Assembly: GCF_045037415.1 (NCBI RefSeq)
Contig: NZ_CP173438.1
DNA: 64,000 nt
Reading direction: 5' to 3' (one strand)
DNA from: Escherichia coli
GTDB taxonomy: Bacteria > Pseudomonadota > Gammaproteobacteria > Enterobacterales > Enterobacteriaceae
Position 1 is the stretch's first letter; the number at the start of each line of letters is the position of its first letter. The notes under the pieces are model-generated. The model had not been told where the DNA came from. It ran no database searches and saw only the letters and a list, made by a program, of their open reading frames with translations. The position numbers were made by a program, and so were the translations under genes. Below, one piece after another: positions 19,222-32,896 of the stretch.

Positions 19222-19337
19222 TAATTGTCGCGAAACTGTCTGGATTGTGAGCAAAGGCGCAGGAATTCAGACACTCTCACTTATCACTTCATGGAATGAG
19301 GGTTACCATACCCGGATTGCATTGACAGGAGATGTCC

Positions 19338-20381
19338 ATGAGCGAGAACTCGATTCGTTTGACCCAATACAGCCACGGCGCTGGTTGCGGCTGTAAAATT
19401 TCCCCAAAAGTGTTGGAAACCATCCTGCACAGTGAGCAGGCGAAGTTTGTTGATCCGAATTTGCTTGTGGGTAATGAAACCCGCGACGATGCGGCGGTGT
19501 ACGATCTGGGCAATGGCACCAGCGTTATCAGTACCACCGACTTCTTTATGCCGATCGTTGATAATCCTTTCGATTTTGGCCGCATTGCGGCGACTAACGC
19601 CATCAGCGATATCTTTGCTATGGGCGGCAAACCGATTATGGCGATTGCGATCCTCGGCTGGCCGATTAACAAACTTTCCCCGGAAATTGCCCGCGAAGTG
19701 ACCGAAGGTGGACGCTATGCATGCCGTCAGGCGGGTATTGCGCTGGCTGGCGGTCACTCCATCGATGCGCCGGAGCCGATTTTTGGTCTGGCGGTAACGG
19801 GGATCGTACCGACCGAGCGGGTGAAGAAAAACAGTACCGCACAAGCCGGATGCAAACTGTTCCTGACGAAACCGCTGGGGATTGGCGTTCTTACCACGGC
19901 TGAGAAAAAATCACTGCTGAAACCAGAACATCAGGGACTGGCGACGGAAGTGATGTGCCGGATGAACATCGCAGGCGTGTCCTTTGCCAACATCGAAGGC
20001 GTAAAAGCGATGACCGACGTTACGGGTTTTGGTTTACTGGGGCATTTAAGCGAAATGTGTCAGGGCGCAGGTGTGCAGGCGCGCGTCGACTATGACGCGA
20101 TCCCGAAATTGCCGGGGGTTGAAGAGTACATTAAGTTGGGCGCAGTGCCTGGCGGCACCGAACGTAACTTTGCCAGCTACGGTCATCTGATGGGTGAAAT
20201 GCCGCGTGAAGTGCGCGATCTGCTGTGCGATCCGCAAACTTCTGGCGGTTTGCTGCTGGCGGTCATGCCGGAAGCAGAAAATGAGGTCAAAGCTACAGCC
20301 GCCGAGTTTGGCATTGAACTGACGGCGATTGGCGAACTGGTGCCAGCGCGCGGCGGTCGTGCCATGGTTGAGATCCGTTAA
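19338..20381 (+). CDS. selD: selenide, water dikinase (selenophosphate synthetase)
   Basis: 347 aa [23 protein letters not shown]...; AIR-synthase-like fold. Confidence 0.93.
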
Positions 20382-23996: not shown

Positions 23997-24269
23997 GTGA
24001 GTCGAGCATTGATCGCCGTAGTATTAGCATTTCCATTAATTACACTGGCTAACCCGCATTATCATCCGGACGTGGAGGTAAACGTACCGCCAGAAGTGTT
24101 CAGTTCAGGCGGGCAGTCAGCGCAGCCCTGTACTCAGTGCTGCGTTTATCAGGATCAAAATTATTCTGAAGGGGCAGTAATTAAAGCCGAAGGAATACTG
24201 CTGCAATGCCAACGGGATGACAAAACCCTAAGCACTAATCCGCTGGTCTGGCGGCGCGTGAAGCCATAA
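23997..24269 (+). CDS. ynjH: DUF1496-family secreted protein YnjH
   Basis: 90 aa with signal peptide; divergent from gdhA. Confidence 0.8.
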   Translation: MSRALIAVVLAFPLITLANPHYHPDVEVNVPPEVFSSGGQSAQPCTQCCVYQDQNYSEGAVIKAEGILLQCQRDDKTLSTNPLVWRRVKP

Positions 24270-24642
24270 ACGCCTCTAATAATGGAATGTCAGCAGGGGC
24301 CAGCGGATATCGCAGCGCCTCTTCAGGTGAGCACCAGACCAGCGCCTGATGTTCATGTGCCTGTAACGTCCCGTGGAAGTCGGGTACGTGCCAGGCATGA
24401 AGATGGATAATCCGCCCCGAAACTTCTCGCTGATGGCTGGCAACATAGTCACCAACAGTTGCTTCGATGCCCAGTTCTTCGTTTAACTCACGCACCAGCG
24501 CCTGCCGCTGGCTTTCATCCGGCTCGATTTTACCACCGGCAAACTCCCATAATCCCGCCTGATCGCTCTGGGCAGGGCGTTGCGCGAGTAAAATTTTGCC
24601 ATCACGTTCGATGATGGCGGCAACAACTTCAATCATTTTCAT
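24235..24642 (-). CDS. nudG: Nudix hydrolase NudG (CTP/5-methyl-dCTP pyrophosphohydrolase)
   Basis: 135 aa, Nudix box GGKIEPDESQRQALVRELNEELG. Confidence 0.88.
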   Translation of the reverse strand: MKMIEVVAAIIERDGKILLAQRPAQSDQAGLWEFAGGKIEPDESQRQALVRELNEELGIEATVGDYVASHQREVSGRIIHLHAWHVPDFHGTLQAHEHQALVWCSPEEALRYPLAPADIPLLEAFMASRAARPAD

Positions 24643-24728: not shown

Positions 24729-25349
24729 GTGCTAGACCGCCATCTTCATCCCCGGATTAAACCGTTGTTGCATCAGTGCGTGCGGGTTCTTGATAAACCG
24801 GGCATTACGCCAGATGGTTTAACATTAGTGGGATTTGCCATCGGCGTGCTGGCACTGCCTTTTCTGGCGCTGGGCTGGTATCTGGCGGCACTAGTCGCCA
24901 TTTTGTTGAACAGGCTGCTTGATGGTCTGGACGGTGCGCTGGCGCGGCGCAGAGGGCTTACCGACGCGGGCGGCTTTCTCGATATTTCTCTCGATTTTCT
25001 TTTTTACGCGCTGGTGCCTTTTGGGTTTATCCTCGCCGCACCGGAGCAAAACGCCCTGGCAGGCGGCTGGCTGCTGTTTGCGTTTATCGGCACGGGCAGC
25101 AGTTTTCTCGCTTTTGCTGCGCTGGCGGCGAAACATCAGATTGATAATCCTGGTTATGCGCATAAATCGTTTTATTATCTGGGCGGCTTAACCGAAGGCA
25201 GCGAGACGATTTTGCTGTTTGTTCTGAGTTGCCTCTTTCCGGCCTGTTTTCCGTGGTTTGCGTGGGTATTTGGTGCGTTGTGCTGGATGACGACCTTTAC
25301 GCGGGTGTGGAGTGGGTATCTGACGCTGAAGTCGCTCCAGCGTCAGTAA
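24729..25349 (+). CDS. ynjF: CDP-alcohol phosphatidyltransferase family membrane protein YnjF (GTG start)
   Basis: 206 aa from second GTG, 6-7 nt after AAGGAG; D-G-x-x-A-R motif. Confidence 0.8.
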   Translation: MLDRHLHPRIKPLLHQCVRVLDKPGITPDGLTLVGFAIGVLALPFLALGWYLAALVAILLNRLLDGLDGALARRRGLTDAGGFLDISLDFLFYALVPFGFILAAPEQNALAGGWLLFAFIGTGSSFLAFAALAAKHQIDNPGYAHKSFYYLGGLTEGSETILLFVLSCLFPACFPWFAWVFGALCWMTTFTRVWSGYLTLKSLQRQ

Positions 25350-25357
25350 TTGCAATG

Positions 25358-26665
25358 TTATTTACTGCTGTCCGGGCCGCGTTCACCGGTTGCTACCGGA
25401 TTTTTTGGATCGCTGCTCCATTCGTACCAGCCACCGTCGTAAACGGAGACGTTATTCCAGCCCATTGCGCGTGCGTACATAAAGGTTTCTGACGCGCGCC
25501 AGCCAGTGCCGCAGTAGAATGAAACTTGCTGATCTGGTTTGATATTCCATGCTTTCCACATAGCGGTTATATCATCGGCGCTGCGCATGGTGCCATCCGG
25601 GTTATGGAAATCTTCCATATGCGTCGAGTCGCTACCTGCGTGTCCCCAACGTGCTCCGGCTATTTCACCTTTTGGTTTAATATAGCTGTAACCGCTGGTC
25701 GTACCGATAAATTCTGGCCACGAACGAATGCTCACCAGCGATGCATCCTGGCGATGCAGCAGTCCACGCGCTTGTTCCATATCAAGCATCAGTTGCGGTT
25801 GTGCCGGGATCTTCACGCCGAAATCCGGTTCCGCTTTCACTTTCGGTGGCGTACCGCGCTCAACGGGCAGACCCGCGTCGGACCAGGTTTGCCAGCCTCC
25901 GTCCAGCAGGCGCACATCTTTCACGCCGGCATAAAGCATAATTTGCGCCACACGCGCTGCAGCGTATACGTCACGCCCGTACAGAATGACCGTGGTGTCA
26001 TGGCGAATGCCGTGTTTTGCCAGCATCGCTTTCAGTTGTTCATCAGAAACTTTGTTCCACAGCGGTTCGCTTTCCACTTCGTTGGTGTCGATGTAGTCAG
26101 CGCCGGGAATATGGCTGATAAGGTAAAATTTTGGAGCGCCCCAGGCCGCTTCAATGACTTTCCAGTCACCGGCAGGTTTCGCCGTAACCTCTTTACCTTG
26201 TTGCAGGTCATGCAGCCACTGCGGATATACCAGCTGTTCAAAGTGCGGCAGTTTTTGCAGACGGGAAGGTTCGCTTAGCGCGTCACTCAGGATGGAGATA
26301 TGCGTAAAACCTGCTTTTTGCAGTCGCGTTTTGACGGCGTCGACATCTTTGTCATTACCGTACAGTGCCACCGGGGCATCGGCTTTCAGGTTATGTTGCT
26401 TGATCCACTCGTTGAGCTGTTCGGTGCTCATTTTGTCGAGCCAGCTAGCAGAGAGGTTTAAGGCGGCAGGTTCATGACCGGAAGGGCCATTTAAGGTTTG
26501 TGGCCAGCCGTTATAAAACGCGCTGGGGCGAGTATCTATCGCTTTGCCATTTTGTTGTTGAAGCTGGTCAAGTGTAAGAGGCTTCGCCAGTTCAGCGGCC
26601 CACGAAGAAGCGCAAGCCAGCCCTAAAGCCATTGCCAGCGCGGTCATTTGAGAAACACGTTTCAT
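25358..26665 (-). CDS. ynjE: periplasmic tandem-rhodanese sulfurtransferase YnjE
   Basis: 435 aa from MKRVSQ with signal peptide; rhodanese CGTGWR active-site loop. Confidence 0.85.
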   Translation of the reverse strand: MKRVSQMTALAMALGLACASSWAAELAKPLTLDQLQQQNGKAIDTRPSAFYNGWPQTLNGPSGHEPAALNLSASWLDKMSTEQLNEWIKQHNLKADAPVALYGNDKDVDAVKTRLQKAGFTHISILSDALSEPSRLQKLPHFEQLVYPQWLHDLQQGKEVTAKPAGDWKVIEAAWGAPKFYLISHIPGADYIDTNEVESEPLWNKVSDEQLKAMLAKHGIRHDTTVILYGRDVYAAARVAQIMLYAGVKDVRLLDGGWQTWSDAGLPVERGTPPKVKAEPDFGVKIPAQPQLMLDMEQARGLLHRQDASLVSIRSWPEFIGTTSGYSYIKPKGEIAGARWGHAGSDSTHMEDFHNPDGTMRSADDITAMWKAWNIKPDQQVSFYCGTGWRASETFMYARAMGWNNVSVYDGGWYEWSSDPKNPVATGERGPDSSK

Positions 26666-26731
26666 CGAAAATCCCGACATTGTAGTTTTGAGAGCGCCAT
26701 TCTGAACTGACGCATCGGGAAAAACTTTGCG

Positions 26732-27385
26732 TTATCGCAGTTTGTTGTAATTTTCTGACCACTGCGCCATATCCAGAACGGGGCTATCAGGAGGAACATC
26801 CTGAAGATCGTGCGTCACCTGCACAACAGGGATCGCCATGGCGCGAATTTCGCTGAACACCCAATGGCGAAAATTATCGCGCAGGGCCACATCAAGACGG
26901 CTGAATGGCTCATCCAGTAGCAACGCTTTTGGCTGAGCGAGAAGGGCGCGAAGCAGAGCAACGCGCGCTCGCTGACCGCCAGACAAAGTGGCAGGATCCT
27001 GATGGAACGCTCCGTCAAGGCCTGAACGCTCAAGTGCATCATTCACGGCATTACGTCGGGCATTCCCCTTAAGTGTCGCCGGTAGCGCCAGCAGTAAATT
27101 TTGCCCGACGCTGAACTGGTCAAATAACAGTGCATCCTGGAAAAGAATGCCAATCTGACGCTGTGCGGTGGGTAGCATGTCAATCCGTTGCTCATTAAGC
27201 CATAGCTCCCCTGTACAAGAAAACTGTCCGGCCAGCGCACCAATCATCCACGAAAACAGAGTGGATTTCCCGCAGCCGGATGGTCCCATTAACGTGACAA
27301 TGTCACCTTTATCTACTGTAAAGTTAACGTTTGTCAGCAAGCGGCTTTCTGGTAAACGTAGCGAAACATTTTTCACGCAGAGCAT
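26732..27385 (-). CDS. ynjD: ABC transporter ATP-binding protein YnjD
   Basis: 217 aa, Walker A GPSGCGKST, signature LSGGQRARV. Confidence 0.82.
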   Translation of the reverse strand: MLCVKNVSLRLPESRLLTNVNFTVDKGDIVTLMGPSGCGKSTLFSWMIGALAGQFSCTGELWLNEQRIDMLPTAQRQIGILFQDALLFDQFSVGQNLLLALPATLKGNARRNAVNDALERSGLDGAFHQDPATLSGGQRARVALLRALLAQPKALLLDEPFSRLDVALRDNFRHWVFSEIRAMAIPVVQVTHDLQDVPPDSPVLDMAQWSENYNKLR

Positions 27386-28920
27386 TAGCGGAGTCCTTGT
27401 CTGACATAACCTACCCATTTTACGACTAACGCGGTCAGGGCAAAAATAATAAGCGGTAACAGCAGTTGCCATAAAGCCTGGGCGGCGAGAATACCGTTGC
27501 TGCCGCCGCTGCTTAATGCCACCGCTTCAGTGGTGAGCGTCGGAAAACGCCCCGCGCCCAGCCACAGCGTCGGCATATACTGCGCAATACTGACTGAAAA
27601 TCCCACCGCGAAGGCAATCAGCGCAGGGCGCAACATGAGTGGGCATTTTACGTAAAAGAAGATTTTGGCCCGCGACCAGCCCAGTGTTTGCGCAATCAAA
27701 ATTAACCGTGAATCAATGCGCTGCCAGGCGGGTTGCAGGATAAACAGCATCCACGGCATTACCCACAGCAGATGCCCCCAGACCACCGCCGTCCAGCTTC
27801 CATCCAGGTTCAGCCATAGCGCCAGCGTGTACTGGCCCGCCACCAGCGGCAGAGCGGGTAATAAAATGGGCAACCATAGCCACAACTGGCGACGCTGTGG
27901 CCCCCATTCCAGCCACAGCAGTAACAAGAGCAAAGCGATGAATGCCGCCACCAGCCCCATTGTCAGGCTGTTGATGAGCGCTTGACTATTGATCGTCGAC
28001 TGATCCGCGAGGATCGCCAGCAGAACCACACACAGCACACCGGTTAAGGGTAAAAAACTCGCCAGCGTATTGCTTGGCAATAAAGGCGTGGCAGGCTTAC
28101 GAACGCCATCTACGCGGGGAATAGTACGCCGCCAGCCACGCCATAGCAGATAGCCCAGCAAAACGTAGGCGGCGAGTAACAGCATCAGCAGCAGGCTGGC
28201 GAGTGCGCCTTTCGTTTGTTGATCGGCGTCGCCCTGAGTTAACCACTGCCAGCTAATTACCGCCAGCGTCGGGGGATTACCTGGCCCAAGAATAATCGCC
28301 ACATCCACGACCGACAGCGACCAGGCGACAATCGCCAGCATCGCCATTGCTAACGCAGACGCGACGGAGGGCAACAGCAGCCAGTTCAGGCATTGCCAGC
28401 GGCTGTAGCCCAGCGAATCCAGCACAATGAGTTGCTGCAACAGCCGTTTTTCGCTCAATACTGCCGCTAAGATCCACAGCAGAAATGCGCTTTCTTTCAC
28501 CGCCAGGGTGAGGCCCAGCCCAATACCCAATTTGTCCATTGGCGGAGTGAAATACGGGAAATAGTCATAAAGCAGCCCTCCGTCAGCAAAGAGCAGAAGG
28601 GCGCTGGTGGCAAAAGCCACATGGGGAATGGCGAGCAGCCACGGCAGACGGGCGCACATACGCTGCCATTTCGGCCCTGGCCACAACGCCACAATCACCA
28701 GCAGGGCAATCAACAACGCCCCGACCGCCGCAATGGTTGTCGACACCAGCGTCGCCAGTAATGCCTGCGGTAACTGTGGATCGGCAAATAACGCCTGCCA
28801 GTGCGTCAACGACAAAGCAGGCGATATCAGCGTGAGAGCTGCCGGGATCAGCGGTGCATAAATCACCGCTATCATCGCCCACAGCAAAAAGATTAATGCG
28901 TACCGTAACGGTGTAGCCAT
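27385..28920 (-). CDS. ynjC: ABC transporter permease YnjC
   Basis: 511 aa duplicated permease; overlaps ynjD start and ynjB end. Confidence 0.82.
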   Translation of the reverse strand: MATPLRYALIFLLWAMIAVIYAPLIPAALTLISPALSLTHWQALFADPQLPQALLATLVSTTIAAVGALLIALLVIVALWPGPKWQRMCARLPWLLAIPHVAFATSALLLFADGGLLYDYFPYFTPPMDKLGIGLGLTLAVKESAFLLWILAAVLSEKRLLQQLIVLDSLGYSRWQCLNWLLLPSVASALAMAMLAIVAWSLSVVDVAIILGPGNPPTLAVISWQWLTQGDADQQTKGALASLLLMLLLAAYVLLGYLLWRGWRRTIPRVDGVRKPATPLLPSNTLASFLPLTGVLCVVLLAILADQSTINSQALINSLTMGLVAAFIALLLLLLWLEWGPQRRQLWLWLPILLPALPLVAGQYTLALWLNLDGSWTAVVWGHLLWVMPWMLFILQPAWQRIDSRLILIAQTLGWSRAKIFFYVKCPLMLRPALIAFAVGFSVSIAQYMPTLWLGAGRFPTLTTEAVALSSGGSNGILAAQALWQLLLPLIIFALTALVVKWVGYVRQGLR

Positions 28921-30059
28921 TCTTGTTCCAGCGCATTTACCCAACCTGCGTGCGGTTCAGCCAGTACCGGCGGCAGATCCTGCGGCATTCTCGATTGCAA
29001 TGTTTCGCGCTGCCCGTCAGGCAGTTTTTGCGGGTCGAGAACAGAAGGATCGCCCCAGACAGCAGGATCTGCTTTACGCAGTTGCGCATCGGGTGAGAGC
29101 AGGAAATTGGCAACTACCTTCGCCGCAGCACTGGCATTCGCGTTGGCAGGAATGGTGACGAAATGGACGTTGCCAATCATCCCCTCGCGAAAACCAAAAC
29201 TGTAACTGCTTGCAGGCAAATCGCCGCTGGCGATTTTTTGCTGCGCATGCGCGGGGTTAAAGGTCAGCGACAGGCGCAATGTGTTAGCTTTCAGCAGAGC
29301 ATCCATCCGCGCGGGCGAAGGCGGGAAATCCTTTCCTTCGCGCCACAAATACGGATGCAGTGCATCAAGATATTGCCACAAGGGCGCAGTGACGCGGGCG
29401 AAAGTGGCATCGTCCGGCGCTTCTTTTAATGCTGTGGGATCTGGCGTTAGCATAATCAGCAACTGTTCAAGAAACGCCGTGCCGGTAAAGTCCGGTGGGC
29501 GCGGATAGGTAACCGTGCCGGGATTGGCTTTAGCAAACTCCAGTAAGGCTTGCGGCGTTTGTGGTGGCTGTAGCGTAACATCGCGGCGGGCGATAAACGT
29601 CAGTTGTGCGCCGCCCCAGGGCGATTCAGCCCCTTCTGTAGGCACTGAAAAATCTTCCCGCACCGGAAGCTGTGTGTCGACATAGCGCCAGTTGGGCAGA
29701 GTCTCCGCCCAGCCGGTTTGTAATAAATTGGCCTCTTTTAAGGTGCGGAAGTTTTCGCCGTTCACCCAGAGCAGATCCACCGAACCGCCCGTTTTACGTC
29801 CGGCAGCAACTTCGGTCTGAATGCGTTTCACCGCGTCTGCGGCATCCGCGAGACGAACAATCTTCAGGTTTATAGCGTAATGGGTTTTCATCTCGCCGCT
29901 AACCCAGTCGAGATAGCGGTTAATTGCGGTATCGCCGCCCCAGGCGTTAAACCAGACGGTTTGTCCTTTGGCCTCATTTTTTATTTCCTGCCAGTCACTG
30001 GCATGTGTTGCCAAAGAAAACAGCGATAACAATCCCAGCAACCACCCACAATGGCGCAT
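28893..30059 (-). CDS. ynjB: ABC transporter periplasmic substrate-binding protein YnjB
   Basis: 388 aa with signal peptide. Confidence 0.82.
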   Translation of the reverse strand: MRHCGWLLGLLSLFSLATHASDWQEIKNEAKGQTVWFNAWGGDTAINRYLDWVSGEMKTHYAINLKIVRLADAADAVKRIQTEVAAGRKTGGSVDLLWVNGENFRTLKEANLLQTGWAETLPNWRYVDTQLPVREDFSVPTEGAESPWGGAQLTFIARRDVTLQPPQTPQALLEFAKANPGTVTYPRPPDFTGTAFLEQLLIMLTPDPTALKEAPDDATFARVTAPLWQYLDALHPYLWREGKDFPPSPARMDALLKANTLRLSLTFNPAHAQQKIASGDLPASSYSFGFREGMIGNVHFVTIPANANASAAAKVVANFLLSPDAQLRKADPAVWGDPSVLDPQKLPDGQRETLQSRMPQDLPPVLAEPHAGWVNALEQEWLHRYGTH

Positions 30060-30068
30060 CTTCTCTCC

Positions 30069-30617
30069 TTAAGAACGTTTTTCAGGAATACGGCACAGCC
30101 CCTGAGCGGGAATGTCCATGGCAGAATTAAAACGGGCTGACAGATTTTGCAGGCCTATCAATGCCGTCAGTTCGGTGAGCGCCTGAGCGTCAAAATGCGT
30201 AGCCAGTCGGGCGCGCAGAGCATCATCGACCGTTGGCGGCGTTACGCTTGCGGCTTCGGCGTACTCCAGCGCCAGCCGTTCTTCATCGCTAAAGAGCGGG
30301 CTTTGCCGCCAGTCAGCCACTGCCAGCAGTTTATCGGTGCTGCCGGTACGCTCGGCGACTTTCATACTGGTGATATCCACGCAAAACTCACACAGGCACA
30401 TTTGCGCAATGCGCGCGCTGACAAGCGATCGTACTACCGGATCGAGCGGTGAGCGTTTGCGCTCCAGCCAGCCGACAAACATCGACACCAGATAAAAGAT
30501 AAACGGGATCCGCCCCCACCAGCGAATCGGGCTTAGCACCTCGCCGTAATGGCGACGATGCAGCCACGCCTGCGGACGTAAAATGAAAGGAATTTTGCTA
30601 AGCGGCGGTAAACCCAT
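30069..30617 (-). CDS. ynjA: AhpD/carboxymuconolactone-decarboxylase-like protein YnjA
   Basis: 182 aa; first gene of the overlapping ynjABCD block. Confidence 0.8.
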   Translation of the reverse strand: MGLPPLSKIPFILRPQAWLHRRHYGEVLSPIRWWGRIPFIFYLVSMFVGWLERKRSPLDPVVRSLVSARIAQMCLCEFCVDITSMKVAERTGSTDKLLAVADWRQSPLFSDEERLALEYAEAASVTPPTVDDALRARLATHFDAQALTELTALIGLQNLSARFNSAMDIPAQGLCRIPEKRS

Positions 30618-31324
30618 CAGGCATTCCTCTTCTGGCGCTCAAGCCATATTTTCTTCGCCATAAAAATCACCACGGTCAGGGCAAACAGAATAAACAGTCC
30701 GGTGACAAACCAGAAAGTACCGCCTGTTAACATGCTGCCCGCCCAGGAATAAACAATAGTCGCCGGTAATTGACCAAGCCCGGTGGCGATAAAAAACGAG
30801 CGAAAACGTATTGAAGTCAAACCGGCAGCATAGCTGATTGGATCGAAAGGGACAAAAGGCAATAACCGACATACCAGGATGGTGTGTTTGCCGTAGCGAG
30901 TGAAAAAGCCGTCCATACTGTCAAGTACGGTTTTGCCGGTTAATTTTTCCACCACTTCGCGGCCCATCACTCTGGCGATAAAAAAGCACAGCGCCGCGCC
31001 GGCCATCGAACTGGTCCACGACAGTAAGCCGCCCCAGAACGCGCCAAACAGCGACGCATTGGCAAAGGTGATCAAAAACGCAGGTAGCGGTGCAGCAATG
31101 GCCTGTAAAATCATCAACAAGAACGAGACAACTGCCGCTAGTGCGCCGTAAGACTGAATAAAGCGTTCTATACCCTGTTGGTCCACGGCGGCAAACGCCG
31201 CAACGCTGCGATTGATAAACTCATGGACGCCGGGAAGCAGCGCCCATGCCAGCAGCACAGCGAACAACAGGATGATGAGGGTTATACGGTAGTACCAGAT
31301 TTTACGCGATTGCATCTTCATCAT
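30617..31324 (-). CDS. ydjZ: TVP38/TMEM64 (DedA-like) inner membrane protein YdjZ
   Basis: 235 aa polytopic membrane protein. Confidence 0.8.
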   Translation of the reverse strand: MMKMQSRKIWYYRITLIILLFAVLLAWALLPGVHEFINRSVAAFAAVDQQGIERFIQSYGALAAVVSFLLMILQAIAAPLPAFLITFANASLFGAFWGGLLSWTSSMAGAALCFFIARVMGREVVEKLTGKTVLDSMDGFFTRYGKHTILVCRLLPFVPFDPISYAAGLTSIRFRSFFIATGLGQLPATIVYSWAGSMLTGGTFWFVTGLFILFALTVVIFMAKKIWLERQKRNA

Positions 31325-31337
31325 CCTTTATCCTGCT

Positions 31338-32015
31338 TTATTCGGTGATTTTAAAGGTAACCGTTGCCAGCGTGTTATCCGCCGGGAGAACTGAGGCATT
31401 GCCTTTGAATTTCACTTCGCCGCGTTTTTCCACCGCACCATAAGTGTATGTTGCATTGCTGACGATGCCGACCGGGCAGCTATCCAGACACACCAGGCAA
31501 CCCGTTTTCTTCTCTTCTGCTGCCGTTAAATTACCGCCAAAGCGCATGTCCAGTTTCTTGCCATTACTGTCAACAATCACTTCATCGAAGGAATACGCTT
31601 TTGCCGCCCCTTGCCAGTTGACCGAAATATCCAGTTTGCTGCCTGTGACATGAGTCGTTTCTTTATTATCCATTGTCATGTTTTCGCCCGGCGTACCACC
31701 TGCCTCTTTCAGGGCTTCATAAAATGCTTTCGGGGTCGCATAACCCATAAACAGCGATTTATGTCCGTTGGAGCCATCTTTAAACACAATACCGTGACGA
31801 GTGTCGTCGGTGAGGAAACGACCATTAATTTGCACCAGCATGGTTACCGTATGGTTATTGGCATCGACACGCAGCGGTTGGCTGTTCGAAAGTCCGTCGT
31901 ATTCCACTTTTGCAGCCGCATTCTCTTTTTGATCGCAGCCGCTAAGCCCAGCAACAGCCAGTAAGCAGAGTGCAGCCAGTCCTTTTTTCCATGACACTGA
32001 ATAATGTTGCAACAT
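31338..32015 (-). CDS. ydjY: putative lipoprotein YdjY
   Basis: 225 aa from MLQHYSVSWKK; lipobox LSGC; track ORF start 32177 is an extension. Confidence 0.75.
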   Translation of the reverse strand: MLQHYSVSWKKGLAALCLLAVAGLSGCDQKENAAAKVEYDGLSNSQPLRVDANNHTVTMLVQINGRFLTDDTRHGIVFKDGSNGHKSLFMGYATPKAFYEALKEAGGTPGENMTMDNKETTHVTGSKLDISVNWQGAAKAYSFDEVIVDSNGKKLDMRFGGNLTAAEEKKTGCLVCLDSCPVGIVSNATYTYGAVEKRGEVKFKGNASVLPADNTLATVTFKITE

Positions 32016-32019
32016 CGTT

Positions 32020-32730
32020 CTATCCTTCATTTTTTGGGTGAGAAAGTGGGCTGCGGCGAGAAGCAGACAGATCCACATGTTTGTGTCGGGCGTAGAGTTT
32101 TGCGAGCTGGACGAGAATAAACAGTGCCAGGCCCGCCAGACAGAGTTGTAAAATAAAGCGCAGCGTAATGCCTTCATTGGCGAGATCGCTTGCCATCACG
32201 GTATAAATAACAATACCGGGTAGGGTCGTGAGTGCCGAAATAAGGGTATAAGGCCAGAAGGCGATTGTGGTTAATCCGTAAGCGTAATTTTGAATATTGT
32301 AAGGAAACAACGGGATTAAGCGGGTCAGAATAAGAAAATCAATACCGTTACGCGCAATGCCTTTTTCAATGGCCTGAAAGGTATGGCTATGGCCAACGTA
32401 TTTCAGCAGTAAATCACGTCCCAGCCAGCGCGCCAGAAGGAATGAGCACGAGGAGGCCAGCGTGGCGGCAATTAATGATAGTAGTGTCCCTAAGAGCGGG
32501 CCAAAAACTATTCCTCCCGCGATCACCAGTATGCTTCCTGGTAACAGAAAGAGGGTGGCAATGATGAATAACAGAATATAGAGGCTATAGCCGAACAATC
32601 CGCTCTGGCGAATGAGTGTCTGTAAGTGGGGTAAATCGGTGAGCAGATCGAATAAACCGAAAGCGTGGATAGCGTAAATGACCAGCGCAAAAATAAGACA
32701 GGCAAAAAGAAATTTACGCTCAGCGTTCAT
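32020..32730 (-). CDS. ydjX: TVP38/TMEM64 (DedA-like) inner membrane protein YdjX
   Basis: 236 aa from MNAERKF; paralog of ydjZ. Confidence 0.8.
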   Translation of the reverse strand: MNAERKFLFACLIFALVIYAIHAFGLFDLLTDLPHLQTLIRQSGLFGYSLYILLFIIATLFLLPGSILVIAGGIVFGPLLGTLLSLIAATLASSCSFLLARWLGRDLLLKYVGHSHTFQAIEKGIARNGIDFLILTRLIPLFPYNIQNYAYGLTTIAFWPYTLISALTTLPGIVIYTVMASDLANEGITLRFILQLCLAGLALFILVQLAKLYARHKHVDLSASRRSPLSHPKNEG

Positions 32731-32896
32731 CGTGGAGTTTCCTATATCAAACTTGATAATAGAGAAGTGGTCAGACAACTAAAAACGCAGTGACGGTATA
32801 ACAAAGGACGGCGGGCAACAAATCATTACTGACAGTTTGTTGATTTTTCTCAAGGTTAATTCTCCTGACCCAGTTTGAGCCAGGAGATCAGCTAAA

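Follow-up and report, generated by a model that had tools for sequence, protein, structure and literature searches.

The closest described counterpart of the locus studied here is that of Escherichia coli K-12 (ydjXYZ-ynjABCD and ynjE, b1750-b1757; EcoCyc/RefSeq), in which genes, order and junctions are identical; DNA identity is 95-100% across E. coli. Our strain differs from K-12 in point substitutions only, two of them in the ynjD-ynjE spacer. The locus is an already annotated, function-unknown operon, ydjXYZ-ynjABCD, with a separately promoted ynjE; it is itself known, and the mechanistic reading given below is what we infer from it.

YdjX and YdjZ have the VTT domain in common with the COG0398 subfamily of DedA proteins (eukaryotic TMEM41B/VMP1 scramblases). 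The paper defining the DedA subfamilies (Todor 2023, PMC10127716) used the AlphaFold model of YdjZ (P76221), described disulfide-oxidoreductase fusions for COG0398, the YdjZ subfamily, and rhodanese fusions for COG0586, and predicted the YdjZ type to be phospholipid flippases, now thought to move lipids and not solutes. It tied COG0398 to aerobic metabolism, whereas E. coli ydjX and ydjZ are FNR-activated and have their closest relatives in strict anaerobes, where the neighbours are a Cys-rich lipoprotein and redox proteins of the Fe-S/CCG type.

Cluster-D importers (PotABCD, PhnSTUV for 2-AEP, ThiBPQ, FbpABC and AfuABC) have their binding-protein fold in common with YnjB, and ThiP/ThiQ resemble YnjC/YnjD in combining a fused double permease with a short ATPase; YnjB differs from them in forming its own subfamily, PRK11622.

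YnjE aligns over residues 33-427 of 435 (E 1e-88) with EanB, the anaerobic ergothioneine synthase of Chlorobium limicola (6h98, 6ktv), which is a polysulfide-using, C-S bond-forming enzyme. The two have the catalytic loop FYCGTGWRxSE and the segment SGYxYIKxKG in common, but a signal peptide or lipobox marks YnjE and its YdjY-linked relatives for export, and the E. coli neighbourhood has no EanA-type histidine methyltransferase. E. coli PspE is likewise an exported rhodanese-fold protein carrying sulfane sulfur, differing in being single-domain and thiosulfate-active. Sud of Wolinella is, like PspE, a single-domain periplasmic sulfurtransferase that is exported and carries sulfane sulfur.

Outside the Enterobacteriaceae, frequent neighbours of YdjY/DedA are the ArsS/TIGR04282/TIGR04283 "arsenosugar biosynthesis" sets (formerly rSAM/selenodomain-associated), accompanied by a nucleoside hydrolase and an APH-like kinase; the E. 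coli locus has none of these genes, and the link is one of neighbourhood in other phyla only.

Gene map and transcription units

The window, that is, the whole stretch of 64,000 nucleotides analysed, has 100% identical counterparts in E. coli chromosomes, and the eight minus-strand genes that an earlier note on this DNA had placed there are also those of the RefSeq annotation (Table 1), from the ydjX start (32730) to the end of the ynjE stop (25358). The gene order in E. coli is xthA, ydjX-ydjY-ydjZ-ynjA-ynjB-ynjC-ynjD, ynjE and then the oppositely oriented ynjF, and the segment with the eight genes belongs to the core genome (5383 of 5426 complete genomes). The family calls of the note agree with ours for YdjX and YdjZ as DedA-like proteins (Pfam VTT_dom, 93 and 87 bits), the lipoprotein YdjY, AhpD-like YnjA (Pfam CMD, 37 bits; motif CLCEFC; PDB relatives 2ijc, 2o4d and AhpD) and the ABC set; YnjE, which it had called a tandem rhodanese, has three rhodanese stretches (PDB 3ipo/2wlr matched at E 1e-286). 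YdjY has the lipobox LSGC with Asp at +2, and both a Cys triad (GCLxCLDSCP) and Arg73-His74 are invariant; no solved structure is clearly related to it in fold.

Table 1. Features of the ydjX-ynjF region, in window positions
Feature	Position	Strand	Description
ydjX	32020..32730	-	RefSeq; DedA/VTT inner-membrane protein, COG0398-type subfamily
ydjY	31338..32015	-	lipoprotein
ydjZ	30617..31324	-	second DedA/VTT protein
ynjA	30069..30617	-	AhpD/CMD-like protein
ynjB	28893..30059	-	periplasmic substrate-binding protein, PRK11622 subfamily
ynjC	27385..28920	-	fused double permease
ynjD	26732..27385	-	ABC ATPase, 217 aa
ynjE	25358..26665	-	periplasmic sulfurtransferase, three rhodanese domains
ynjF	24729..25349	+	CDP-alcohol phosphatidyltransferase (RefSeq), convergent with ynjE
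Hairpin, 12-bp	32861..32887	-	just past xthA stop; terminator-like, without U-run; upstream limit of block
FNR box TTGAGAAAAATCAA	32840..32853	-	9/10 consensus positions; 117 nt upstream of ydjX ATG
ynjD-ynjE spacer	26666..26731	-	66 nt
Sigma-70-like match TTCAGA-16-TACAAT	26706..26679	-	promoter scan; inside ynjD-ynjE spacer
Hairpin, 12-bp	25320..25346	-	3' of ynjE stop, within 3' end of convergent ynjF

Read from the sequence, the gaps are 4 nt between ydjX and ydjY, 13 nt between ydjY and ydjZ and 9 nt between ynjA and ynjB. As previously described, ydjZ and ynjA share one base (TGATG) and ynjB overlaps ynjC by 28 nt, given the annotated ynjC ATG at 28920; similar ynjB/ynjC overlaps are also present in Kluyvera and Citrobacter. 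The overlap of ynjC with ynjD had been described the wrong way round, because it is the ynjC stop that lies over the ynjD start (1 nt, TAATG). Shine-Dalgarno-like sequences were found alongside the gene map and junctions. Minimal or overlapping junctions had been claimed throughout; the tightly packed genes are seven (ydjX to ynjD), not eight, and ynjE follows only after the 66-nt gap. Short and overlapping junctions are ordinary in bacterial operons and represent no anomaly.

The hairpin upstream of the block folds at -21.6 kcal/mol (z = -3.97), and none of 200 shuffles was equally stable. The FNR box upstream of ydjX, found by pattern search and local scan, is also carried by K-12, and its position agrees with that of the class-I site, published at -60.5, through which ydjXYZ-ynjABCD is directly FNR-activated (Myers 2013). 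In EcoCyc and in Myers 2013, ydjXYZ-ynjABCD is a transcription unit separate from ynjE, and both units have an FNR peak and sigma-70 occupancy to themselves; the FNR ChIP-seq peak of ynjE is centred ~79 nt ahead of its ATG. According to published ChIP and expression data both units are directly FNR-activated, and they rise together under oxygen limitation, co-induced with anaerobic genes. In our local scan the ynjD-ynjE spacer has no FNR box that matches the consensus at 7 or more of 10 positions. It has no significant hairpin (fold z = -1.58) either, and with no terminator there, read-through into ynjE may occur. These data show that ydjX-ynjD forms one tightly packed operon with a near-consensus FNR box in front of it and that ynjE is a second FNR-activated unit. 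The single operon of eight genes proposed earlier is thus not supported at ynjE, where there is an internal promoter of the kind that the note had counted against its own proposal, though no terminator.

The hairpin beyond ynjE folds at -24 kcal/mol (z = -3.52), ynjF ends 8 nt from the ynjE stop, and the ynjE-ynjF pair has been catalogued among overlapping convergent transcripts.

Conserved neighbourhoods in other phyla

We compared 74 non-enterobacterial YdjY loci, in 67 of which YdjY has a VTT/DedA neighbour. The YdjZ homologues adjoining YdjY are 45-60% identical in Firmicutes and Campylobacterota and 30-36% in Desulfobacterota (tblastn, 74 loci), and the pairing of YdjY with a YdjZ-like DedA protein is conserved among anaerobes from these three phyla at least. 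Neighbours of YdjY further include Fer4+CCG proteins (24/74), YnjB-like binding proteins (11/74), ArsS (9/74) and YnjE-like or other rhodanese proteins (7/74). HdrD-like Fe-S proteins and "arsenosugar" glycosyltransferases likewise recur with the pair of YdjY and YdjZ-like DedA proteins. One Bacillota MAG (L055) has, in a single co-directional cluster, YdjY, a small membrane protein, YdjX-like, YdjZ-like, Fer4/CCG and YnjF-like proteins, YnjB, YnjC and YnjD, with YnjC split into two genes as in Firmicutes (two half-size homologues per locus), and Catonella has this gene set rearranged and accompanied by a YnjE-like lipoprotein. In four lineages the YnjE-like partners lie outside the cytoplasm and retain the loop CGTGWR (CGSGWR in L033), and Fer4/CCG-VTT fusions were found in Desulfobacterota. 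Because YdjY/DedA, YnjB-type importers and extracytoplasmic YnjE-like enzymes co-recur in differing orders in distant phyla, these comparisons support a functional neighbourhood, as had been proposed, rather than a chance row of genes. The cross-phylum synteny could stem partly from horizontal transfer of one cluster and not from independent selection, and a GC step at ydjX-ydjY is compatible with such transfer.

By the same sequence comparisons, ynjF belongs to this neighbourhood, though it lies outside the block first delimited. YnjF-like and YnjB-like ABC genes occur in the same co-directional clusters in five Firmicute loci (L027, L043, L049, L055 and L061), a YnjF-like gene adjoins YdjY/YdjZ at L037, which lacks a YnjB-like gene, and Citrobacter and Kluyvera have a CMD-ynjF pair, the CMD protein of Citrobacter rodentium being 54% identical to YnjA. 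This convergent gene, assigned to the system by the comparative data, had been missed in the earlier note. No YnjA counterpart was found in the non-enterobacterial YdjY loci, so that the equivalence of YnjA with Fer4/CCG proteins is only positional.

These neighbours also fit a lipid head-group system, which we consider unlikely. The head group imported by YnjBCD would be a polar alcohol or resemble a sugar phosphate; YnjF (61 bits to archaetidylinositol-phosphate synthase) would transfer phosphatidyl to it from CDP-diacylglycerol, the DedA pair would flip the product into the periplasmic leaflet, and YdjY and YnjE would act on it there, with sulfur chemistry peripheral. Besides the five YnjF/YnjB clusters and the predicted flippase activity of the YdjZ subfamily (PMC10127716), it is favoured by MprF-like flippase domains in 6 YdjY loci, by APH/choline-kinase-like kinases, CofC-like nucleotidyltransferases and GT2 enzymes in 13-17, and by the envelope phenotypes of a strong fitness gain of the ynjC P213S mutation under colistin and mild induction of ynjA and ynjB by BaeR overproduction. 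However, the kinase, nucleotidyltransferase and GT2 genes are absent at the E. coli locus, and the YdjY Cys triad, the Fer4/CCG and AhpD-like redox partners, the extracytoplasmic EanB-like enzymes and the SelD and ArsS neighbours are left unexplained.

The YnjBCD importer

YnjB is an SBP_bac_8 binding protein (PRK11622, 557 bits) whose AF2 model (pLDDT 95.4) has as top Foldseek matches PhnS-like STM0429, PotD, FbpA, AfuA and TbpA, at TM 0.57-0.68 and 12-18% identity; two of these fold neighbours, AfuA (sugar phosphates) and PhnS (2-AEP), suit head-group import. No sulfate- or thiosulfate-binding protein was among the top 50 fold matches, and phmmer gave neither a PDB match nor a sequence match to TbpA. 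This modelled fold class gives no ligand call; together with invariant Asp/Trp residues, it suggests a binding protein for amines, zwitterions or sugar phosphates more than one for oxyanions or sulfur. YnjC matches Pfam BPD_transp_1 and YnjD matches ABC_tran (103.5 bits, without a regulatory C-domain). All three proteins fall far below the cut-offs of every named NCBIfam importer model, including sulfate/thiosulfate, thiamine (ThiQ), CysT, CysA and taurine, the best sub-cut-off matches being PhnT2, PhnU2 and ThiQ.

A literal reading of the earlier note gives import of a sulfur compound (thiosulfate, sulfonate or similar) by an eight-gene operon, followed by rhodanese processing. We regard it as improbable: co-directional tight packing, a periplasmic sulfurtransferase beside an importer and the missing terminator before ynjE agree with it, but the separate FNR peak and sigma-70 occupancy of ynjE, the model scores and fold matches above and the near inactivity of YnjE on thiosulfate do not, and a periplasmic enzyme works before import, not after.

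YnjE and a possible chalcogen pathway

YnjE carries a signal peptide and is periplasmic also according to the literature, as had been proposed; its active-site loop, FYCGTGWR, is EanB-like. It was inactive in thiosulfate:GSH sulfurtransferase assays, and poor activity with thiosulfate or 3-mercaptopyruvate is cited from earlier work. The argument for a sulfur-containing substrate is weak, YnjE, nearly thiosulfate-inactive when purified, being its only sulfur element; that the genes belong together does not show import of a sulfur compound. The Seebeck laboratory, citing the YnjE structure paper, has suggested that many function-unknown EanB-like enzymes may attach sulfur to heterocycles.

The current EcoCyc/RefSeq name of YnjE in K-12, "molybdopterin synthase sulfurtransferase", would instead make the locus a set of co-regulated but functionally separate neighbours, with YnjE as a sulfur carrier for that synthase, YnjBCD as a thiamine- or polyamine-like importer (JGI names YnjB a [quoted passage not shown]) and the DedA proteins in housekeeping. 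Molybdoenzymes are also under FNR. Nevertheless, Moco synthesis is cytoplasmic while YnjE is exported, deletion of ynjE leaves Moco-dependent phenotypes normal, the ThiQ and TbpA comparisons failed as described, and recurrent clustering across phyla argues against coincidence, which makes this reading highly improbable.

We tentatively propose chalcogen capture, import and reductive release, possibly lipid-linked, as a possible though not a probable function. Under anaerobiosis, periplasmic YnjE would take sulfane sulfur, possibly selenium, from polysulfide-like donors; the recipient would be an organic acceptor or the Cys triad of YdjY, which is tethered to the inner membrane. The species or its carrier would cross the inner membrane via the DedA pair and/or YnjBCD and be released reductively in the cytoplasm by the CxxC protein YnjA, whose slot HdrD-like Fe-S proteins, some fused to a DedA domain, may fill in other phyla; YnjF may join an imported head group to phospholipid. 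This proposal is favoured by the gene map and junctions, the FNR data, the hairpin-free ynjD-ynjE spacer, the 74-locus counts, the L055 and Catonella clusters, the extracytoplasmic YnjE-like partners, the closeness of YnjE to EanB, and the Fer4/CCG-VTT fusions together with the oxidoreductase and rhodanese fusions of Todor 2023 (PMC10127716). It is weakened by the near inactivity of YnjE on thiosulfate, by the YnjB fold class and invariant Asp/Trp, by the lipid rather than solute transport ascribed to the YdjZ subfamily, by the missing YnjA counterpart in non-enterobacterial loci and by possible horizontal transfer as the source of part of the synteny.

A possible role in selenium supply

The most interesting reading, albeit a distinctly unlikely one, is that the YdjY/DedA core, YnjE and YnjA capture and reduce selenium and pass it to SelD for anaerobic selenoproteins, YnjBCD taking up an organoselenium or carrier compound. 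FNR control fits the anaerobic demand of formate dehydrogenases. In 7 of the 74 loci, SelD is no more than 10 kb from YdjY, where a rough back-of-envelope estimate gives ~0.5 loci by chance (20 kb of a ~3-Mb genome), and E. coli selD is 5 kb from the ynjE stop. However, the evidence is wholly circumstantial: the SelD-linked loci are clustered phylogenetically (three Facklamia and four Desulfobacterota, the latter in varied arrangements, adjacent in L025), unrelated ynjF, nudG, ynjH, gdhA and topB separate ynjE from selD in E. coli, the YnjB pocket residues are unlike an oxyanion site, and the literature searched contains no selenium phenotype for these genes. Reviews state that no specific high-affinity prokaryotic selenium transporter is known. 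Also in favour of selenium supply, YnjA matches a "YciW-related (seleno)protein" family at 102 bits, YnjE weakly matches ExtH, the rhodanese of a selenite/tellurite operon, and selenoprotein-type neighbours of YdjY include an ArsS "(seleno)protein", PrdB-like fragments and redoxins.

Gene map and transcription units

The eight minus-strand genes from ydjX to ynjE lie exactly at 25358-32730, as the earlier note had placed them, when the RefSeq annotation is transferred onto the window and the junctions are read directly from the sequence (table below). K-12 has an identical gene map. The 8-kb stretch matches several E. coli chromosomes at 100% identity and, counted at a coverage of at least 80%, is found in 5383 of 5426 complete genomes of the species, indicating that it belongs to the core genome. 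The gene map, the packing of seven genes and the family assignments are firmly established. The junctions look like those of an ordinary operon and are statistically unremarkable; for most starts a Shine-Dalgarno sequence of AGGA or GGAG type lies within the preceding gene, the exceptions being ynjC, with only a weak GGAA, and ynjE, whose GGGA lies inside the ynjD-ynjE spacer. Two details had been misread: the 1-nt overlap of ynjC and ynjD involves the ynjC stop and the ynjD start, rather than the ynjC start and the ynjD stop, and ynjE, described as tightly joined, follows ynjD after a spacer. Because the locus is an annotated y-gene cluster of K-12 with published FNR regulation, recorded in the databases, the initial observation is real but ordinary and adds nothing new.

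Features of the locus, with gene coordinates from the RefSeq annotation
Feature	Position in the window	Strand	Junction or remark
xthA	32897-33703	-	
FNR box	32840-32853		upstream of ydjX
ydjX	32020-32730	-	4-nt gap to ydjY
ydjY	31338-32015	-	13-nt gap to ydjZ
ydjZ	30617-31324	-	1-nt overlap with ynjA (TGATG)
ynjA	30069-30617	-	9-nt gap to ynjB
ynjB	28893-30059	-	28-nt overlap with ynjC
ynjC	27385-28920	-	1-nt overlap with ynjD (TAATG)
ynjD	26732-27385	-	66-nt gap to ynjE
Stretch with two positions differing from K-12	26711-26720		ynjD-ynjE spacer
ynjE	25358-26665	-	
Hairpin	25320-25346		12 bp, inside ynjF coding end
ynjF	24729-25349	+	convergent with ynjE, 8-nt gap
nudG	24235-24642	-	convergent with ynjH
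ynjH	23997-24269	+	35-nt overlap with nudG at the 3' ends
selD	19332-20381	+	upstream of topB

A single operon of all eight genes had been proposed, and this holds from ydjX to ynjD, where the genes are tightly spaced and the terminator scan gave no terminator-like match on the minus strand at any junction of the block; ynjE falls outside it on account of its spacer, a sigma-70-like match therein, and a published FNR peak and sigma-70 occupancy of its own. The locus consists of two FNR-activated, co-regulated units, ydjX-ynjD and ynjE. The 166-nt xthA-ydjX spacer begins with a strong hairpin (z = -3.97), and the FNR box upstream of ydjX, TTGAGAAAAATCAA, has one mismatch to the consensus TTGAT-N4-ATCAA (9/10), so that both the sequence and the published ChIP and expression evidence assign ydjX to the FNR regulon. 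In the FNR regulon study of Myers et al. (2013), ydjXYZ-ynjABCD was directly FNR-activated with the best site at -60.5; ynjE was listed as an operon of its own, likewise under direct activation, with a distinct ChIP-seq peak, increased sigma-70 occupancy and a site at -41.5. Once the 1976-bp shift between versions of the K-12 coordinates is corrected, the centres of the two peaks lie 22 nt (ydjX) and 79 nt (ynjE) upstream of the respective ATG codons.

The support for FNR control of ynjE comes from the literature; in this strain no FNR box with at least 7/10 matches occurs within 200 nt upstream of ynjE, the published -41.5 site thus not being reproduced, and K-12 has only one 7/10 match, about 224 nt upstream. 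The spacer carries a sigma-70-like TTCAGA-16-TACAAT match in a promoter scan in which such matches were rarer than in shuffles (4 versus 8.4). Since it contains neither an intrinsic terminator nor a significant hairpin (fold z = -1.58), the separation of ynjE is argued from promoter evidence, and read-through from ynjD into ynjE is possible. The spacer differs at two adjacent positions from K-12 (locus L088, 7410-7419; tcccgatgcg here versus the ttttctcaat region), and these fall where the published ynjE FNR site should be. The hairpin inside the ynjF coding end (z = -3.5) could end ynjE transcripts, and a 2025 survey lists ynjE-ynjF as an overlapping convergent pair ("excludon"). In line with the co-regulation of the two units, independent expression data from the literature show that ydjY and ynjE rise in O157:H7 under oxygen limitation together with nar, fdn, nap and ynfE, in different clusters; both drop in a ygfI mutant, together with hyc, dms and frd; and BaeR overproduction mildly induces ynjA and ynjB.

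A neighbourhood conserved across phyla

YdjY homologues with 46-61% identity were found in anaerobic Firmicutes (Finegoldia, Peptostreptococcus, Gemella, Catonella, Facklamia and Clostridium), in Campylobacterota (Sulfurospirillum and Campylobacter concisus) and in Desulfobacterota; within Enterobacteriaceae they were found only in Escherichia, one Citrobacter and [Enterobacter] lignolyticus. We compared 80 genome loci by tblastn, six enterobacterial and 74 others, and counted neighbours within 10 kb of YdjY. The full eight-gene block is confined to the six enterobacterial loci. Elsewhere the most frequent neighbour is a DedA protein (67 of 74 loci), the YdjZ-type ones being 45-60% identical to YdjZ, and an HdrD-like Fe-S protein with Fer4 and CCG domains, sometimes fused to a VTT domain, follows in 24 of the 74. 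A YnjB-subfamily binding protein with permeases and ATPase is present in 11, and rhodanese proteins in 7. Further neighbours are TIGR04282/TIGR04283 "arsenosugar" transferases (16-17 of 74), an APH-like kinase (13), the ArsS radical-SAM (seleno)protein (9) and SelD (7). No YnjA homologue was found by tblastn and phmmer in the 74 non-enterobacterial loci.

In a Bacillota MAG (L055), YdjY, a small membrane protein, YdjX-like, YdjZ-like, Fer4/CCG, YnjF-like, YnjB, YnjC (as two genes) and YnjD are encoded co-directionally; this is in essence the gene set of E. coli, Fer4/CCG taking the position of YnjA. Catonella carries that set in rearranged order, together with a YnjE-like protein. The CGTGWR loop is conserved in the YnjE-like partners (as CGSGWR in a Peptostreptococcaceae protein). 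Those of Catonella and a Peptostreptococcaceae MAG are lipoproteins and those of Campylobacter have signal peptides, so that they are exported, as YnjE is. YnjF, which the earlier note left out, is in the same functional neighbourhood as the block: YnjF-like genes share clusters with YnjB-like ABC genes in five loci, and in another (L037) such a gene adjoins YdjY/YdjZ, with no YnjB-like gene. YnjF itself is a CDP-alcohol phosphatidyltransferase by the RefSeq family call and by DGLDGALARRRGLTDAGGFLDISLD in its translation (motif DG-x2-AR-x7,8-G-x3-D-x3-D); its best NCBIfam matches, inositol-phosphate-type synthases, are under their cut-offs. This recurrent synteny in other phyla led us to reject a chance juxtaposition, and a neighbourhood that unites the DedA/YdjY core with the YnjB-type importer, YnjF and exported enzymes of the EanB type across phyla is firmly established, bearing out the functional link that had been proposed for the genes.

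A small four-helix membrane protein of about 125-150 aa with an invariant VWLEMR motif occurs in about 27 of the 74 loci, usually next after YdjY (e.g., L044 2881-3270 and L029 11062-11493); it has no Pfam or NCBIfam match and no E. coli counterpart. In Catonella morbi (L035 3622-5980), Campylobacter (L067) and Facklamia (L075), the YdjY/DedA cluster is accompanied by an APH/choline-kinase-like kinase, a fused TIGR04282+TIGR04283 "arsenosugar"-type transferase, ArsS and a nucleoside hydrolase. These anaerobes, which are host-associated and of oral, gut or animal origin, are not known for arsenosugar synthesis.

Proteins encoded in the block

YnjBCD has the features of a binding-protein-dependent (type I) ABC importer: YnjB has an SBP_bac_8 domain and a signal-like N-terminus (MRHCGWLLGLLSLFSLATHA), YnjC a BPD_transp_1 domain, and YnjD an ABC_tran domain with GPSGCGKST, LSGGQ and LLLDEPFS motifs. 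All named NCBIfam importer models, among them CysT, CysA, ThiQ, PhnT2, PotA and ModB, score well under their cut-offs. A sulfate/thiosulfate importer of the CysPTWA type was rejected on the scores of CysT (21.6 bits versus a cut-off of 246) and CysA (107 versus 502), and Sbp/CysP are absent from the top 50 Foldseek fold matches of YnjB; the taurine-importer model likewise falls short of its cut-off (TauB, 108 bits versus 357), and a molybdate importer was rejected on the NCBIfam scores as well. The thiamine importer ThiBPQ, the KEGG/JGI label of ynjBCD, was also rejected (ThiQ, 131 bits versus 245), and YnjB has no phmmer match to TbpA, the likeness being at the fold level only (TM 0.61, 14% identity). 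For the YnjB model (pLDDT 95.4), the nearest Foldseek folds are PhnS-like STM0429, PotD, FbpA/FutA, AfuA, TbpA and YdcS (TM 0.57-0.68); because these bind ligands as varied as polyamines, 2-AEP, iron, sugar phosphates, thiamine and metal citrate, and are 12-18% identical to YnjB, we make no ligand call. The YnjB family has invariant Asp95, Asp136, Gln326 and Trp381 and nearly invariant Trp98 and Trp239, and there are hints of a cationic or zwitterionic ligand rather than an oxyanion. A literal reading of the earlier note, that one operon imports a sulfur compound, we consider very unlikely.

YnjE had been called a periplasmic tandem-rhodanese sulfurtransferase. The periplasmic location agrees with its Sec signal peptide and with the literature, whereas Pfam gives three rhodanese stretches, not two, and YnjE matches crystal structures 3ipo and 2wlr. 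With three domains and the catalytic Cys in a CGTGWR loop, YnjE is an EanB-like rhodanese; its closest characterised relative is EanB of Chlorobium limicola, a polysulfide-dependent anaerobic ergothioneine synthase (E 1e-88; loop FYCGTGWR identical). EanB itself is a cytoplasmic enzyme acting on hercynine with the histidine trimethylase EanA as partner; YnjE carries a signal peptide and has no methyltransferase in its neighbourhood, which by sequence argues against an ergothioneine synthase. With reference to the YnjE structure paper, the discoverers of EanB note that EanB-like enzymes without a known function may add sulfur to heterocycles. Previous work found no thiosulfate:glutathione activity for YnjE and called its physiological substrate unclear. 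The K-12 name, molybdopterin synthase sulfurtransferase, implies cytoplasmic sulfur transfer to MoaD and a Moco-deficient deletion phenotype; because YnjE is exported, by sequence and literature, and a ynjE deletion has normal chlorate and HAP phenotypes, the name fits poorly. That the genes are merely separate neighbours, with YnjE working in Moco synthesis, is the most improbable of the readings considered here.

YdjY (PF27149), whose Cys triad is C173, C176 and C180, has a predicted lipobox (...LLAVAGLSGC-D...; pattern [LVI][ASTVI][GAS]C after the signal-peptide hydrophobic region), and an Asp at +2 suggests retention of a lipoprotein in the inner membrane. YdjY does not match its K-12 product name, 4Fe-4S ferredoxin, which would call for a CxxCxxCxxxCP cluster motif together with a ferredoxin fold. 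YnjA belongs to the AhpD/CMD family (PF02627, 37 bits versus a cut-off of 23; CEFC motif; AhpD among PDB relatives), its best specific match being the "YciW-related (seleno)protein" family. YdjX and YdjZ are DedA/VTT proteins (PF09335, 93 and 87 bits versus 33.9) and score far too low against the UptA model for UndP flippases of the UptA/COG0586 type (27-36 bits versus 250). YdjZ has been placed in COG0398, a subfamily lacking the conserved Arg pair in the second re-entrant helix of UndP flippases; its AlphaFold model (P76221) is the one shown for this subfamily, which is thought to flip phospholipids, not undecaprenyl phosphate (Todor, 2023; PMC10127716).

Possible mechanism and its rivals

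We tentatively favour, as a whole, a system that handles a chalcogen outside the cytoplasm, moves it inward and releases it in the cytoplasm, with a possible lipid end-point. The exported sulfurtransferase and the Cys-triad lipoprotein would handle the chalcogen, the membrane components would transport it, or an organic carrier of it, towards the cytoplasm, and a thiol or Fe-S redox protein there would set it free; YnjF may provide the lipid end-point. This is supported by the redox partners (Fer4/CCG fusions, AhpD-like proteins and redoxins), to which the published disulfide-oxidoreductase and rhodanese fusions of DedA proteins can be added (PMC10127716), and by the chalcogen or metalloid flavour of the neighbours (SelD, ArsS and rhodaneses). 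The main rival is a lipid head-group system, for which the importer, YnjF, DedA and MprF-like flippases speak, as do two envelope phenotypes, a ynjC P213S change under colistin and the BaeR induction; we regard it as unlikely, and the redox-DedA fusion architecture does not fit a simple lipid-flippase picture. In Desulfobacterota (L004 and L047 of Desulfarculus, L080 and L025), the DedA/VTT protein next to YdjY is fused to Fer4 and HdrD-like CCG domains. The interpretation in the earlier note was partly right, in the functional link and the periplasmic sulfurtransferase, and wrong in the single operon and two details, with sulfur unproven.

More speculatively, and in our judgement rather improbably, the block, ynjF and the nearby selD may make up a route dedicated to acquiring and trafficking selenium, in E. 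coli as well as in many anaerobes. Exported YnjE and YdjY would capture selenium, the DedA pair and YnjBCD would take it across the inner membrane, and YnjA, or HdrD-like proteins elsewhere, would reduce it for SelD. In the window, selD (selenide, water dikinase; 618 bits) and the ynjE stop are only about 5 kb apart, and the SelD neighbours belong to two phyla (Facklamia and Desulfobacterota) and differ in arrangement, against a chance expectation of about 0.5 loci by a rough estimate (20 kb of a ~3-Mb genome). However, this support is circumstantial and phylogenetically clustered, and our literature search found no selenium, tellurium or sulfur-source phenotype for the genes of the block. According to reviews, prokaryotes have no known transporter that is specific for selenium and of high affinity; such a route, if true, would be a long-sought one, and the COG0398 DedA subfamily would gain a non-lipid, redox-coupled transport role.

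Of the core-genome clusters that are induced anaerobically and lack a known function in the best-studied bacterium, this locus is among the larger. The YdjY-DedA core, common to gut and oral anaerobes, gives a frame for it, repeatedly joining a YnjB-type importer, a YnjF-type phosphatidyltransferase, exported EanB-like enzymes, Fe-S disulfide-reductase-like proteins, SelD and ArsS. As a target the locus is worthwhile, since its function could be settled by simple experiments with available E. coli mutants; Keio mutants make testable the cargo of COG0398 DedA proteins, the roles of EanB-like enzymes outside ergothioneine producers and selenium-specific uptake in bacteria.

Variation within Enterobacteriaceae

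Citrobacter rodentium (L090) has xthA, one DedA gene (30-35% identical to YdjX and YdjZ), ynjBCD and ynjE, and Kluyvera ascorbata (L089) has two DedA genes before ynjBCD-ynjE. Both loci lack ydjY, and in both a CMD gene, 54% identical to YnjA in C. rodentium, adjoins ynjF on the opposite strand. These maps indicate that a DedA position upstream of ynjB persists with different genes filling it, and that ynjA has been relocated between the ynjF and ynjB sides; they also place ynjF in the functional neighbourhood of the block. GC content steps from 0.45-0.49 in ydjX-ydjY (31300-32800) to 0.54-0.575 in ynjA-ynjC (27400-30700). The lower value is compatible with a different origin of the 5' module or its replacement by horizontal transfer. 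A 574-aa metagenomic protein (P0122) with CMD and SBP_bac_8 domains is either an apparent fusion of YnjA with YnjB or the product of a gene call that ran through the 9-nt gap.
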